DNA from: Opitutales bacterium
Lineage (GTDB): Bacteria > Verrucomicrobiota > Verrucomicrobiia > Opitutales > PNEW01
DNA length: 64,000 bases
Reading direction: 5' to 3'
Assembly (NCBI GenBank): GCA_965197745.1
Contig: CBDANS010000007.1
Location: 576,001 to 640,000 of the forward strand
In this document: one piece after another, positions 41,697 to 44,791 of the stretch
Layout: the number at the start of each line of letters is the position of its first letter
How positions within the stretch are numbered: the stretch's first letter is position 1
The notes under the pieces: generated by a model
Database searches by the model: none
The model's input: the letters and a program-made list of their open reading frames with translations, nothing else
What the model was told of the DNA's origin: nothing
Program-made: the position numbers and the translations under genes

Positions 41697-42693
41697 TTAA
41701 GTGAGAGAGTTCCCGGGTATTAATGGTTTTAGGATTGATGTATATGAGAGATCTTGGCGAAGTGAGGGCGTAGCCCGAACGCGGCCAAGATCTGAAAGGA
41801 ATGTGACAAACTCTTGTGGGCTTTTAAAGCCTAAACGACTGTGGGGATGATCATGGTTATAGGTCTGGCGCCATTGTTCGATTACAACTTGTGCTTCAGC
41901 CACGCTGAGCAACACTTCACGGTTCAAACACTCATCGCGTAAGCGGTTGTGAAACGACTCGATGAAACCGTTTTGCCAGGGACTGCCCGGATCGATATAT
42001 ATCGCCTTGATCTTTTTGTCGGACAACGACTGCTGCACTTGATGAGCAATGAATGGCTTCGCATGTCGTCGCTTCGCTCCTCGGAACACTGCCGTTGTCA
42101 CTACGGATATAGCTGGGAGCTCCCTCCTTTTCAATGGCCTCGCTAAGCACAGAGAGGACATCCGATGAGGTGAGTTCACGAGCGACCCGGATATCCAGAC
42201 ATTCACGCGTATATGTCTTCGCTTCGCTTGAGTGTCGTCGCTTTCAGCTCCTCGGTACATCGATCAGAGTCATCATCTTTAATGGACCGCCATGGTCTGT
42301 GCGATCATGGACAAAGTCCCAGGACCAAAGGTGATTGCGACCGGTTGCTTTAGTAGGCGACCCCGTAGAGACCCCTTGACGGTGTCTACGCTTTTTAGGT
42401 GGCTTTACCTGCAACCCTTCTGAACGTCGTACTGCCTGAACAAACTTCCTGTTTGTTGTCCAGCCTTCCTTTACGAGCAAGGCACGGATGCGCCGGTAAC
42501 CGTAGCAGGGATGTTCCCAGGACAGGGTTATAATCCGCTCGGCCAACCGCTGAGCTTTCTTACTGGCCTGCTTGGGCTGGTAGCTGAAAGTTGACCAACT
42601 GAGGCTGAGGTAGGAACAAGCCCTTCGCAACGAGCACAGCCCTCTCTCAGCCGCATCTTTTACTACTCGCTTCTTCTGCTTGGGGCTCACCAC
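41697..42693 (-). pseudogene. IS3 OrfB DDE transposase, interrupted by two short insertions (about 42055-42086 and 42215-42257)
   Basis: YGYRRI, WSWDFVHD, LID[ins]YTRECL, IRSDNGS[ins]FIA, PGSPWQNGFIESF..RLRDECL. Confidence 0.88.
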
Positions 42694-42953
42694 TTTTTTG
42701 ACAGCGTTTCCTCCATTACCTGATTCTTAAGCATTTGATCAGCGAGCATCTTCTTCAACTCGGTGTTTTCTTTTTCCAGCTCTTTAAATCGCTTCGCATC
42801 GGCTAGTTCCAAATTGCCATACTTTTTACCCCAGCGATAGAAGGTCTGTTCACTCACGTTGTTGCCTCGGCAGATTTCCTCTACCGTTTTTCCGGTATCG
42901 GCTTGCCGCAGTATTGCGATGATCTGTTCTGTTGTGTATCTTTTTCTTTTCAT
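42687..42953 (-). CDS. IS3 OrfA (HTH)
   Basis: MKRKRYTTEQII.ILRQ...EICR..NVSEQTFYRW..KY...LEKEN.ELKK. Confidence 0.92.
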   Translation of the reverse strand: MKRKRYTTEQIIAILRQADTGKTVEEICRGNNVSEQTFYRWGKKYGNLELADAKRFKELEKENTELKKMLADQMLKNQVMEETLSKKW

Positions 42954-43332: not shown

Positions 43333-43713
43333 TCAAGCTGAGGAGAGGTGGCAGAGTGGCTGACTACGAAGGTTAGAAACCTGAGACCCCATGTGCCTGG
43401 CTGCATCAGGCACAGTAGAAGTAAAATCGACTTTACATTATTCCATGAGTCGCAAATCGTCAGGCTGAGGAAAGGTGGCAGAGTGGCTGACTACGAAGGT
43501 TAGAAACCTGAGACCCCATGTGCCTGGCTGCATCAGGCACAGTAGAAGTAAAATCGACTTTGCATTATTCCATGAGTCGCAAATCGTCAGGCTGAGGAAA
43601 GGTGGCAGAGTGGCCGACTACGAAGGTTGAAAACCTGAGACCCCATGTGCCTGGCTGCATCAGGCACAATAGAAGTAAAATCGACTTTACATTAATCCAT
43701 GAGTCGCAAATCG
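43333..43713 (+). repeat. Three tandem 127-bp units, each containing a modified 5' half of tRNA-Ser
   Basis: GCTGAGG recurs at 43337, 43464, 43591 and 43718 (period 127). Units differ by a few SNPs. Confidence 0.95.
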
Positions 43714-43722
43714 TCAAGCTGA

Positions 43723-43812
43723 GGAGAGGTGGCAGAGTGGCCGAATGTGCCTGACTCGAAATCAGGTGGTGGAGCAATCCACCCGGGGGTTCGAATCCCT
43801 CCCTCTCCGCCA
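43723..43812 (+). tRNA. tRNA-Ser (anticodon CGA)
   Basis: GGAGAGG...CCTCTCC-G-CCA acceptor, anticodon arm CCTGA-CTCGAAA-TCAGG, long variable arm, GGTTCGAATCC. Confidence 0.97.
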
Positions 43813-44356
43813 GTTCAATTGCGGATTGTCGATTGTCGATTGGATAAGATTTATCAATGGCGGATTTATTTTTGCTTCGAGTTGGCTCTGGCGGATTTGC
43901 GTGAGGTCACGACAATGGCGGTAATTTCGTTTGCTTCTTGTTTTACTTCTTGGAGGTAGTTGTAAGGAAGAATTCCCGATTCTTCGGTTAGCTCTAACCA
44001 GAATAGAGTTTCGTCAGCTTCTTCTTCAACAATACCAAGTTTTGCTATGAACTCCGTTTTGCTTCTTGCTCTACAAGCTGATCGATAATTCGAAGCTACA
44101 GATGTTCCACATCGTACGATTTGATTGCTTATAATTCTTGCGGTTGAAGTTTTGGGTAATGCTTCAACCATTTTCAGTATTTTCAAAGCAAAAATTTTAG
44201 TCCTATTCTTCATTATATCTGGATTCATATAATGTAAGAATTCGGATAAACTCTGTTTTTTATTAAGGCTTTAATCGAATTTCTCAATCAGCAATCGAAA
44301 ATCGAAAATCGAAAATCGAAAATTCCCCAAGATCCCTCCCTCTCCGCCAGTTCAAT
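43795..44356. mobile_element. tRNA 3'-anchored mini-element: 25-bp direct repeats, inverted heptamer arms, four-helix-bundle gene
   Basis: ATCCCTCCCTCTCCGCCAGTTCAAT is identical at 43795-43819 and 44332-44356. Arms are (GATTGTC)n at 43817-43844 and (AAATCGA)n at 44285-44324. Confidence 0.7.
43866..44228 (-). CDS. Four helix bundle protein (23S rRNA intervening-sequence protein/TIGR02436-like)
   Basis: RTK.FAL.I...V..LP......I..QI.RCGTSVASNYR.ACRARSK.EFIAKL.IVEEEADET.FWLEL ... EANEI.AI. Confidence 0.92.
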   Translation of the reverse strand: MNPDIMKNRTKIFALKILKMVEALPKTSTARIISNQIVRCGTSVASNYRSACRARSKTEFIAKLGIVEEEADETLFWLELTEESGILPYNYLQEVKQEANEITAIVVTSRKSARANSKQK

Positions 44357-44791
44357 GTTAGATGTCGCCCACGCGGTAGCGGGGCTTGGTAGTCGATTTC
44401 GGATTTTCGATGAGGGATGTCGGGCTGTGCCCTCGGTAGTCGATTGGATAGAATAGCCACCAGCCGTCGTCCCGCGGTGGCGGGACTATGGCCGGCAAGC
44501 AAAAGGCACTACCAGAGCGCAGCGAGATCTTCCAAAGGCAGAAGAGATAATAATTTAGATAAGTATTTTTCAAGATAAGCTGTTTGGTAACCGACAGGAA
44601 CAATCGGCATTCGTACCGAGGGCGTTGCCCGACATCTTCCAAATCGACAATTGGCTCGTCCCTGAGATGCAAAATTAGGACCGTGACCAACCATCGCTTC
44701 TCTTCCCTGCGTGTGAAGGAAATTAGTCATTGAAATCCTGTCGCCGGTGCAGTTATAATGCTGATTAAATTTTAAAGCGAGGAAAGTTCAA

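Follow-up and report, generated by a model that had tools for sequence, protein, structure and literature searches.

A tRNA-Ser(CGA) gene and the unit behind it

We analyzed a 64,000-nucleotide stretch of the genome of an Opitutales bacterium (referred to as the window), in which a gene for tRNA-Ser(CGA) lies on the plus strand at positions 43723..43812 (ARAGORN; Rfam tRNA model, 55.6 bits). The 3′-end of this gene is the anchor, or attachment core, of a small unit that follows it. A repeat search of the window found the 25-mer ATCCCTCCCTCTCCGCCAGTTCAAT in two copies that are 100% identical and 537 nt apart, the first at 43795..43819 and the second at 44332..44356, both on the plus strand. Each copy runs from the last two bases of the T-loop to the CCA, covering 18 nt of the tRNA, and continues for 7 nt into the trailer to take in the first heptamer, GTTCAAT, with copy 2 reproducing the 3′-end of the tRNA at a displaced position. 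The two copies are the only occurrences of the 25-mer in the 4.45-Mb genome, and by our own arithmetic the chance of a 25-nt identity within 2 kb is of the order of 1e-9.

The sole long open reading frame (ORF) between the copies is on the minus strand at 43866..44228, antisense to the tRNA, and encodes a 120-aa four-helix-bundle (4HB) protein of the PF05635/TIGR02436 family (S23p/Avd fold). It is enclosed by two heptamer arrays: a left arm at 43813–43843 on the plus strand (GTTCAAT TGCGGAT TGTCGAT TGTCGAT TGG), and a right arm at 44285–44324 on the same strand (CAATCAG CAATCGA (AAATCGA)x3 AAATT) that is the inverse of the motif GATTNNN. An earlier interpretation of this DNA made from its letters alone (the sequence-only reading) had described a perfect 25-bp duplication, a single 120-aa gene on the opposite strand and heptamer arms, and our repeat, ORF and profile searches confirm this 537-bp tRNA-anchored unit as described. 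The locus, including both repeats, was found without differences in public-run contigs from three studies, though one of these runs may be the source sample; one such contig spans 43788–44488 without differing from the window.

Downstream of repeat copy 2, a 36-nt GC-rich piece containing GATGTCGCCCAC (44357..44392, plus strand) separates the repeat from the next arm. A 12-mer within it has at least 12 exact copies among the genome matches listed by blastn-short, along with one 25-nt relative, and the piece is probably a tiny REP-like insert. It is followed by a second unit without a gene (44393..44654, plus strand), which consists of left heptamers (44393–44411), a noncoding core, and right heptamers (44637–44654), with 23-nt inverted ends at 44416–44438 and 44614–44636. 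This gene-less unit is homologous to the lone unit found after tRNA-Ser(CGA) in two related genomes, G001 and G002, and its core is 94% identical to that of the unit after the tRNA-Ser(GCT) of the same genome. The right flank of the array is a TauD gene, which differs from the flank in the relatives, and orthology on the right side of the array is therefore not demonstrated.

The repeat search also found three tandem 127-nt units upstream of tRNA-Ser(CGA) (43333..43744, plus strand). Each comprises the leader of the tRNA together with the initial 22 nt of the tRNA itself, an insert of 27 nt and a piece resembling the anticodon arm, and the last of them continues into the genuine tRNA-Ser(CGA). 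We regard these units as context of the cassette; the same repeat structure is present at the metagenome locus L177.

The four-helix-bundle gene and its heptamer arms

By both sequence cut-offs and fold, the 4HB protein belongs to the PF05635/TIGR02436 family. It matches PF05635 with an E-value of 1.2e-16 (61.3 bits, cut-off 33.8), TIGR02436 with 2e-24 (85.9 bits, cut-off 24) and the sequence of PDB entry 2rld with 4e-15. The AlphaFold model has four helices (pLDDT 92.6), and Foldseek returned TM-scores of 0.86 to 2rld, ∼0.8 to 2gsc and 0.77 to bAvd (4dwl), the last bearing out the structural relationship to Avd claimed in the sequence-only reading. Avd of diversity-generating retroelements is described in PMC10053308 as a nucleic-acid- and enzyme-binding scaffold (PDB 4dwl, 8ub7). 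The window protein has the same four-helix-bundle fold as Avd but only ∼10% sequence identity to it, and its locus has no template/variable repeat pair. A search for reverse transcriptase (PF00078) found no match in the genome, which is 92% complete, making a retroelement route unlikely.

The 4HB gene is functional and under purifying selection, with a dN/dS of 0.07–0.10 in comparisons with its closest relatives and 0.07–0.14 among the closest four; the 4HB copy in the atp operon gave 0.19–0.28. A promoter scan found no sigma-70-like promoter for the gene, with a scan model that may not suit this host.

A related arrangement is described for the intervening sequence (IVS) found in the 23S rRNA of Coxiella burnetii, in which an S23p/PF05635 ORF lies within complementary termini and is adjoined by three tandem heptamers, GACAGAT (PMC4990558). 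The idea that IVSs are mobile is old (Ralph and McClelland 1993, cited for it in PMC4990558), and where that paper takes up transposition remnants and a mobile element, it does so as hypotheses only. The window unit resembles the IVS in combining a PF05635-family ORF with heptamers and with ends of modest complementarity. Unlike an IVS, it occupies the tRNA-Ser(CGA) trailer instead of a 23S or 16S rRNA helix, its ORF reads antisense to the surrounding transcript, it is flanked by the tRNA end duplicated in direct orientation, and its stem is weak (19 nt with 2 mismatches). Its gene is under purifying selection, whereas the Coxiella gene is described as decaying (PMC4990558). The sequence-only reading had held that this family is encoded antisense within rRNA IVSs, which does not agree with the discussion of the Coxiella ORF in PMC4990558 as translatable from the IVS RNA. 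Our literature search found no paper describing heptamer-armed 4HB cassettes outside rRNA.

The left arm bears TTCAATTG at its outer end, a motif that is frequent at the outer ends of arrays. The two arms had been proposed to form a long stem, and an inverted match between them does exist: the best is 19 nt with 17 identities (Smith–Waterman score 28), compared with a mean of 16.7, a 99th percentile of 24 and a maximum of 30 in 1000 random sets of the same geometry. In minimum-free-energy folds of 43806–44340 (535 nt), however, the arms did not pair with each other on either strand (z −1.8 and −2.7). An earlier duplexfold run on the 200-nt flanks gave only uninformative long structures. Given this modest complementarity and folds in which the arms stay unpaired, a long stem is possible but is not predicted for the window copy.

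Arms are nevertheless a trait of the 4HB family, in which the combination of gene and arms is general: good scores were obtained for 10 of the 12 4HB copies in the same genome and, across many phyla, for 53 of the 71 relatives that could be tested, in line with the expectation in the sequence-only reading that other family members would carry arms; the search for related cassettes used a four-sequence alignment as its query. In a permuted-partner control on the 71 loci, the 99th percentile was as high as 46, a score reached by just 21 of them, because the arms of different loci have the motif in common. Relative to the gene, an ATT/AAT motif of period 7 pointed in the expected direction at 13 of the 71 loci and in the opposite one at 2, under a strict pattern that few loci pass. 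The same genome contains 41 GATTNNN arrays (3 in a shuffled control), and the window 4HB gene is its only intact 4HB gene of the GATTNNN class. Since ∼33 of the 41 arrays do not adjoin a Ser-type core, tRNA anchoring is merely one of the situations in which arrays are found.

Arrays of small modules behind tRNA-Ser genes

The new part of our finding is the tRNA anchoring of heptamer-armed modules. In the same genome, tRNA-Ser(GCT) is followed by heptamers, a noncoding core of ∼150 nt, inverted heptamers and a perfect 24-nt repeat, TCCCTCCCTCTCCGCCATTTCGAT, directly after which unique DNA begins. Gene-less heptamer units with the same tRNA-end repeat are also found in G001 and at the metagenome locus L178. 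Behind the tRNA-Ser(GCT) of G001 the order is element A, repeat, unit, repeat, unit, while at a second G001 locus (L016) it is tRNA fragment, element A, repeat, unit, repeat, 4HB unit, with a 4HB gene 82% identical to the window gene at the nucleotide level. Element A is an unrelated structured module without heptamer arms that is bounded by the same tRNA-Ser 3′-end repeat, and its conserved closing helix arises from pairing of the repeat with GG(A/T)GGGAT (one compensatory pair across three sequences). At L178 (identical to L182), tRNA-Ser(GGA) is followed by a gene-less unit, repeat, 4HB unit, repeat and flank, and the 4HB gene is again antisense, with 82.6% nucleotide identity to the window gene. 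Several arrays lack a repeat after their final unit.

The minimum shared by the tRNA-end repeats is CCTCTCCGCCA, which comprises the 3′-strand of the acceptor stem, the discriminator base and the CCA. The length of tRNA-end identity varies from 11 to 18 nt between loci, and in the window it is 17–18 nt plus the common first heptamer. The duplication as a whole spans a variable 11–25 nt and is in every case a tRNA-Ser end, which is unlike the known footprints of transposases. As for terminal inverted repeats of the MITE or transposon kind, the arms form inverted arrays, with TTCAATTG frequent at their outer ends.

Filled and empty sites could be compared at two tRNA genes. The tRNA-Ser(GGA) locus of G002 (L041) is orthologous to L178, the 1515 nt that end at the CCA being 89.6% identical, and is an empty site with nothing inserted after the tRNA; the next conserved block begins 77 nt past the CCA in G002 and 75 nt past the last repeat in L178. 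At tRNA-Ser(CGA) we found four states: no unit at all in G003; a single gene-less unit without a repeat in G001 and G002; the L177 state; and, in the window, the 4HB unit, repeat and gene-less unit. The L177 locus is exactly 145 nt longer than that of G001, the extra sequence being element A and a 17-nt repeat placed directly after the CCA, and then continues into the same downstream flank. On alignment to G001, the window array fits insertion either at the CCA or at a point flanked by the arm and by the resident unit's inverted end. The recurring repeat together with the filled and empty sites indicates that modules pile up at tRNA-Ser genes, each with the core CCTCTCCGCCA. These comparisons supply the empty tRNA-Ser alleles that the sequence-only reading had suggested looking for, and its proposal of the tRNA-Ser 3′-end as a target is supported by the gain of units with a duplicated tRNA end in relatives.

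This arrangement is narrowly distributed. Heptamers stand right behind the CCA at 2 of the 44 tRNAs of the same genome, both of them Ser and with the same 3′-end. Across 301 genomes of the order, the junction pattern is present in 7, with multiple copies only in the host's family (G000, 6; G001, 6; G002, 2); the matches in the other four genomes are by chance in coding DNA in three cases and genuine in one. A further 46 metagenome stretches have the same acceptor end followed directly by a heptamer hairpin, and in 36 of them ARAGORN places a tRNA ending at that CCA (14 Ser-CGA, 11 Ser-TGA, 4 Ser-GGA and 7 SeC). Among 80 distant 4HB loci, none has a tRNA within 1.2 kb, and flanking direct repeats of at least 12 nt were present at 8 of those tested, mostly as parts of the heptamer arrays. 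The Ser-type core 17-mer lies beside none of the 11 other 4HB copies of the genome. One of the cassettes, between atpG and atpD, is common to G000, G001 and G002; the corresponding atp spacer of G003 is shorter and has arm-like remnants, so it is not a clean empty site.

How the array may have formed

We take the 537-bp element to be an intervening-sequence-type cassette and the tRNA-proximal member of a two-unit array. For the array itself, our main reading, to which we assign a probability of roughly 0.5, is the stepwise addition of modules by recombination with an enzyme acting in trans, with the 4HB gene as cargo. Small modules—heptamer units with or without a 4HB gene, and element A—would be added successively right behind the CCA of tRNA-Ser, each addition leaving one more copy of the tRNA 3′-end. 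The most likely route would be conservative site-specific recombination between a core-bearing circle or donor copy and the tRNA gene, catalyzed by an enzyme that we infer to be supplied in trans. The 4HB protein, as an oligomeric ring, would most likely bind the 7-nt-periodic arms in RNA or single-stranded DNA, a role we propose because of its Avd/S23p fold and the conserved periodic motif. We searched contigs of four runs for a joint skipping the 537 bp between the repeats and found none, although contigs drop rare variants and are uninformative on absence. Joints such as 43843->44515 were considered as excision junctions and rejected, as they fit the paralogous tRNA-Ser(GCT) locus instead.

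Integron cassettes are small, mostly single-gene or gene-less elements with hairpin recombination structures that are stacked at a fixed site, where the newest cassette adjoins the attachment point and the recombinase is encoded off the cassette. The comparison with our modules is an analogy: the window system has no IntI, attI or attC, its fixed site is the end of a tRNA gene, and the heptamer hairpin arms enclose the cargo rather than follow it.

A different explanation, which we regard as unlikely, is that the repeat is no insertion scar but the product of a long-past tandem duplication that took in the tRNA 3′-end and trailer, kept because its tRNA-like ends act as RNA processing signals as in the RtT/tyrT system, with the unit contents turned over by cassette insertion or arm recombination. 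In the RtT/tyrT repeats, each repeat contains a copy of the tRNA 3′-end, and our units likewise lie behind a tRNA gene and each close with such a copy. The E. coli repeats (RF00391) are described as repeated units after the tRNA (Bosl and Kersten 1991, cited in PMC4986893), and RtT RNAs as freed from tRNA operon transcripts (PMC4986893). Several observations fit this explanation: locus L137 of G278, from another family, has the same layout and resembles a plain ∼196-nt tandem duplication including the tRNA end, heptamers and element A; the conserved closing helix of element A involves the repeat; and the repeats are perfect despite diverged surrounding units. An Rfam search of seven loci (E ≤ 0.1) gave tRNAs and sub-threshold matches only, with no RF00391 match at the window locus; the one to RF00391, on G001 element A, was full-length yet weak (28.8 bits, gathering cut-off 45). 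Against a trailer repeat, the tRNA-Ser(GCT) of the same genome carries a single unit with unique DNA straight after the second repeat copy, and the window's two units have only the generic heptamer motif in common. The trailer units differ in content, one of them with a protein gene, and insertion is favored by the filled and empty sites, as L178 versus the empty G002 site and L177 versus G001 resemble discrete insertions at the CCA.

The sequence-only reading had favored an autonomous minimal element, in which the 4HB protein and the heptamer arms are themselves the mobility machinery and the tRNA-Ser 3′-end is their chosen target. The gene and arms do move jointly to unrelated sites and phyla, a family of 4HB units with ∼82% nucleotide identity adjoins tRNA-Ser(CGA) in the window as well as tRNA-Ser(GGA)-type ends in L178 and G001, and the gene is under purifying selection; as the only intact GATTNNN-class 4HB gene among 41 arrays, it could serve gene-less units in trans. 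However, a 120-aa all-helical bundle has no known catalytic motif, and its solved relatives (2rld, 2gsc and Avd) are scaffolds. Gene-less units and the armless element A have the same repeat, tRNA adjacency is 0/80 among distant cassettes, and the genome's other cassettes lack both a comparable flanking duplication and the Ser-type core (0/11). We therefore consider an autonomous element quite improbable and depart from the sequence-only reading on this point: the 4HB gene is conserved cargo that is dispensable in cis for tRNA anchoring.

Islands with tyrosine integrases that target tRNA genes insert at the tRNA 3′-end and duplicate a 3′ segment, and they can pile up in tandem with older ones pushed outward. 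Like them, the window unit has the tRNA 3′ segment directly repeated at its two ends (25/25, with 18 nt of tRNA). The heptamer units differ in having no integrase in cis, in being merely 150–540 nt long, in ends that are inverted heptamer arrays rather than island ends, and in a repeat that runs from the 3′-strand of the T-stem or later to the CCA and into the first heptamer. No recombinase is linked to the units, and the one tRNA-targeting integrase family that we saw belongs to islands with repeats of another geometry, which span GGTTCGA in the T-loop region to the CCA (GGTTCGAATCCAGTATCTCCCACCA around a 41.6-kb island is one example), and with their own conserved ends without heptamers. As the sequence-only reading had said, the unit is integrase-less: within the window we found no match to PF00589, nothing homologous to the 409-aa integrase family that is tRNA-linked in this genome and neither island-end motif (ttatttatcgacattttg and gatgcacg..taaaca). 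That the unit is what is left of a larger island in tRNA-Ser(CGA), nearly all deleted, with the repeats as former attachment sites, is very improbable: although a multi-copy, divergent tyrosine-recombinase family lies ∼70 nt past tRNA CCA ends in this genome (Val, Leu and a Ser-type fragment, C7:1464710) and islands of this type strike tRNA-Ser genes in G002, the 25-bp repeat starts 7–8 nt later than island repeats and extends 7 nt past the CCA, the window holds no integrase gene or fragment, the gene-less siblings share the compact layout, and tRNA-Ser(CGA) carries no island in G001, G002 or G003, in agreement with the earlier view that the unit is not an island remnant.

Stepwise addition by a trans-acting enzyme also admits a bolder version, which is doubtful at present: an integrase-less cassette system, hitherto undescribed, that uses the acceptor/CCA core of tRNA-Ser (and tRNA-Sec), in which a ring of the 4HB protein would read the arms and serve a host or trans-acting recombinase as the specificity or assembly factor that the system itself provides. 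If true, rRNA IVSs, intergenic heptamer arrays and tRNA arrays would all be manifestations of a single mobile system. The mode of movement of ORF-bearing IVSs, and of the heptamer-armed 4HB cassettes related to them, has been a standing question since the 1990s. Most cassettes sit in operon spacers and are scarless, while the tRNA-Ser loci offer a defined core, filled and empty sites, and arrays, all of which are handles for designing excision, integration and protein–arm binding assays. In the host lineage, small modules of several kinds collect in the trailers of tRNA-Ser genes.

Structure of the unit at tRNA-Ser(CGA)

A repeat search of the window, which spans C7:576001–640000 of a 4.45-Mb host genome in 7 contigs, recovered a perfect 25-nt direct repeat, ATCCCTCCCTCTCCGCCAGTTCAAT, at 43795–43819 and 44332–44356, with the two copies 537 nt apart and found nowhere else when the whole genome was searched. 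The repeat joins the final 18 nt of tRNA-Ser(CGA) (43723–43812, plus strand, ARAGORN) to 7 further nt, and its tRNA part covers two T-loop bases, the 3′ strands of the T-stem and acceptor stem, the discriminator G and CCA. The sole long ORF between the copies (43866–44228, minus strand, 120 aa) has heptamer arrays on both sides, at 43813–43843 and 44285–44324. Repeat, ORF and arrays had all been described in the sequence-only reading and were all re-found here. The long stem that it proposed for the arms is weak in the window copy. The best inverted match spans 19 nt with 17 identities and scores 28, where 1000 random controls of the same geometry reached up to 30 and had their 99th percentile at 24, and the arms do not pair with each other in the minimum-free-energy folds of either strand.

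The ORF matches the four-helix-bundle (4HB) families PF05635 (E 1.2e-16) and TIGR02436 (E 2e-24) as well as the sequence of PDB 2rld (E 4e-15), and its predicted model has four helices (pLDDT 92.6) that superpose on 2rld with a TM score of 0.86, on 2gsc with about 0.8 and on the retroelement protein bAvd (4dwl) with 0.77. Since a genome search found no reverse transcriptase, an Avd-like retroelement role is unlikely in this genome. The 4HB genes are under purifying selection, with dN/dS of 0.07–0.14 across the window gene and its three closest relatives and of 0.19–0.28 for a copy between atpG and atpD that is common to this genome and two others of the same family, G001 and G002. We regard the 4HB gene as conserved cargo. 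From the scaffold fold of the Avd/S23p type and from the conserved GATT motif with its period of 7, we infer that the protein most likely binds those periodic arms.

Upstream of tRNA-Ser(CGA), three tandem 127-nt units (43333–43744) each contain the tRNA leader, tRNA nt 1–22, a 27-nt insert in which GGTT-GAAA-AACC forms a hairpin, and a piece resembling an anticodon arm. They look like pseudo 5′ halves of this tRNA; the same structure occurs in a metagenome contig (L177) and is absent from G001. Further upstream lies an IS3-family element (41697–42953, minus strand) whose transposase is broken up over several frames (HTH_Tnp_1, HTH_21 and a piece of rve_3).

Heptamer arms across the genome and the protein family

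A genome search with the 17-mer TCCCTCCCTCTCCGCCA, allowing up to 3 mismatches, turned up further sites besides the window locus. A tRNA-Ser(GCT) at C7:491709 has this type of end, which recurs 220 nt further downstream; the match at C7:1464710 is a tRNA fragment, and degenerate copies adjoin heptamer arrays at C7:1499900, 1519984 and 1520107. The tRNA-Ser(GCT) locus repeats the anatomy of the 537-bp element without its gene: the tRNA is followed by TTTCGAT TTACGAT TTTCGAT TTTCGAT, a noncoding core of ∼150 nt, inverted heptamers, the second tRNA end as a perfect 24-nt repeat, and unique DNA. Its core is 94% identical to that of a second unit in the window. Only Ser(CGA) and Ser(GCT), 2 of the 44 tRNA genes, carry heptamers immediately 3′ of CCA. 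Strict GATTNNN arrays number 41 in the genome, compared with 3 in a shuffle, and the only two that flank a 4HB gene are the arms of the window element.

The 14 PF05635 matches in the genome were taken to represent 12 genes, two of which are split, and the 200-nt flanks of each gene were scored for inverted matching to one another. A score of at least 28 was reached by 10 of the 12, with 4 above all 1000 controls. The heptamer itself varies between copies (GGTTCAG, GATGCAG, GAATTAT and others), while the array on one side of a gene is in every case complementary to that on the other. Relatives were sought in a species-representative genome collection with a pattern built from a four-sequence alignment; among the 573 recovered, the best 80 share 47–64% amino acid identity and, by record titles, span many phyla. 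Both flanks were available for 71 of these 80, and 53 of the 71 reach an arm score of at least 25, with printed arms that are mostly tandem heptamers of the GATTNNN/NNNAATC kind. The permuted-partner control was itself high because the arms of separate loci have a motif in common, its 99th percentile of 46 being attained by 21 of the 71 loci. Heptamer arms around the 4HB gene are, from these comparisons, a trait of the family.

The PF05635 genes without inverted arms, at C6:753553–753990 (score 19) and C7:2054168–2054485 (score 23), have one other conserved upstream region in common, and may therefore form a separate subgroup. The cassette between atpG and atpD (C6:1083934–1084290) has GAATTAT-type arms and lies in sense orientation; it is kept in G001 and G002 at 85–87% nucleotide identity, and the corresponding spacer in G003, the third genome compared, is shorter with arm-like remnants.

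Filled and empty sites behind tRNA-Ser genes

Across these three genomes of the same family, tRNA-Ser(CGA) has no unit in G003 and a single gene-less heptamer unit in G001 and G002, where both the second tRNA end and the 4HB gene are absent. The closest G001 relative of the window gene (82% nucleotide identity) lies at another locus, as the final member of an array that runs from a Ser-type tRNA fragment through element A, a structured module without heptamer arms, to a repeat, a gene-less unit, a repeat and the 4HB unit. At tRNA-Ser(GCT) of G001 the order is element A, repeat, unit, repeat, unit.

A metagenome junction scan yielded 46 stretches (L162–L207) with a compact heptamer hairpin directly 3′ of the acceptor end CCTCTCCGCCA. 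In 36 of the 46, that CCA is the end of a tRNA called by ARAGORN (Ser-CGA 14, Ser-TGA 11, Ser-GGA 4, SeC 7), counts that do not measure Ser specificity because the search pattern itself demanded a Ser-type end; several stretches have a second tRNA-Ser gene ∼150 nt further on. Two stretches are decisive. One of them, L177, has tRNA-Ser(CGA) with the downstream flank of G001 and G002 and is longer than G001 by exactly 145 nt, namely element A plus a 17-nt tRNA-end copy directly 3′ of CCA. L178, identical to L182, reads tRNA-Ser(GGA), gene-less unit, CCCTCTCCGCCATTTTGAT, 4HB unit, CCTCTCCGCCATT and flank, its 4HB unit being antisense like that of the window and 82.6% identical to it in nucleotide sequence. 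The G002 counterpart, 89.6% identical over 1515 nt up to CCA, has no insert; the next conserved block begins 77 nt past CCA in G002 and 75 nt past the last repeat in L178. We conclude from these comparisons that tRNA-Ser genes gain, or lose with precision, at least three kinds of module immediately behind them. Every module brings a copy of the tRNA end, with CCTCTCCGCCA as the shared minimum, and the additional 7 nt of the window repeat are the first heptamer, common to incoming and resident units. The array type is common to 4HB units, gene-less units and element A.

Element A (L031:1078–1222, L016:1105–1250 in G001, L034:∼1396–1502, L177:1367–1511, and L137:∼1313–1508 in G278, a genome from another family) is a conserved stretch of about 125–190 nt that separates a tRNA-Ser gene from the repeated copy of its 3′ end. 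Within it, GGGATGAGAACCC is invariant and GG(A/T)GGGAT pairs with the repeat as a closing helix, with one compensatory pair in 3 sequences only. No Rfam family matched, RtT scoring 28.8 bits, below threshold, and element A may be a small RNA linked to tRNAs that has yet to be described.

Other sequences accompany tRNA ends in this lineage. tRNA-Ser(GGA) (C7:1460569–1460658) and tRNA-Ser(TGA) (C7:2027742–2027829) are 94% identical over 298 nt, a likeness that takes in ∼200 nt of trailer, so that two different Ser genes have the same sequence behind them. The motif GCCTTCGCC...GGCTGGCA(A/G)GCCAG stands directly 3′ of CCA at tRNA-Val(CAC), Arg(CCG) and Arg(CCT), and also at an island end at C5:48147, while several other tRNA trailers start with TTCG(A/G)CTTCGCTCATGGC(A/G)GG instead; these trailer motifs add one more repeat family that goes with tRNA ends. 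The arrays frequently adjoin a large gene at its 3′ end (L031:1800–2716, L033, L034 and G002), a gene whose C-terminal ∼600 nt occurs in at least 40 copies in G002 at 78–84% nucleotide identity.

Origin of the arrays

We favor, at a probability of roughly one half, site-specific capture as the origin of repeat and array, in which modules would be captured at the tRNA-Ser 3′ end by an enzyme acting in trans. No such enzyme is encoded in the element or elsewhere in the 64-kb window. The genome has 14 PF00589 matches and a divergent, multi-copy, tyrosine-recombinase-like family of 409 aa, which is 24–27% identical to several of them and matches XerD and Int_N only weakly. Copies of this family (C7:1464784, C5:6565, C4:100306, C7:1337528) start ∼70 nt after tRNA CCA ends, behind a conserved end motif, following tRNA-Val and tRNA-Leu as well as Ser-type and other tRNA fragments. 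Their islands, such as a 41.6-kb example on C5 with a 25-nt tRNA-Val repeat at its bounds, are bounded by repeats running from GGTTCGA through CCA and have conserved ends of their own without heptamers, and so differ from the small units in both repeat extent and end motifs. The integrases therefore attest that tRNA-Ser ends serve as attachment sites in this lineage, with nothing tying them to the small units. Integrase islands entering the same tRNA genes at a later time explain the displaced Ser-type ends that have heptamer units at places away from tRNAs, since they moved the old tRNA end off together with its trailer.

An alternative that we consider unlikely is a trailer duplication of the RtT/tyrT type whose content turned over later, a reading favored by a locus in G278 that is simply duplicated in tandem, and by the use of the repeat in the closing helix of element A. 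Somewhat less likely again is the autonomous mobile unit of 4HB protein and arms envisaged in the sequence-only reading. Four public runs, drawn from three studies, have contigs in which the element is unchanged, and these contigs, which cannot exclude rare excision, contain no excision joint. That the element is the remnant of an island is very improbable, the island-end motif not having been found in the window.

The protein family and the analogy to intervening sequences (IVS) are already known. The closest published description found is the 23S rRNA IVS of Coxiella burnetii, which likewise has an S23p ORF beside tandem heptamers (three GACAGAT copies), together with a terminal stem of 28 bp that RNase III cuts (PMC4990558). 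A full-text literature search returned no description of such cassettes outside rRNA, and nowhere was an account found of arrays that are anchored at tRNA-Ser, bounded by repeats and represented by both filled and empty sites. The tRNA-Ser arrays offer a useful way into the unsolved problem of cassette movement.
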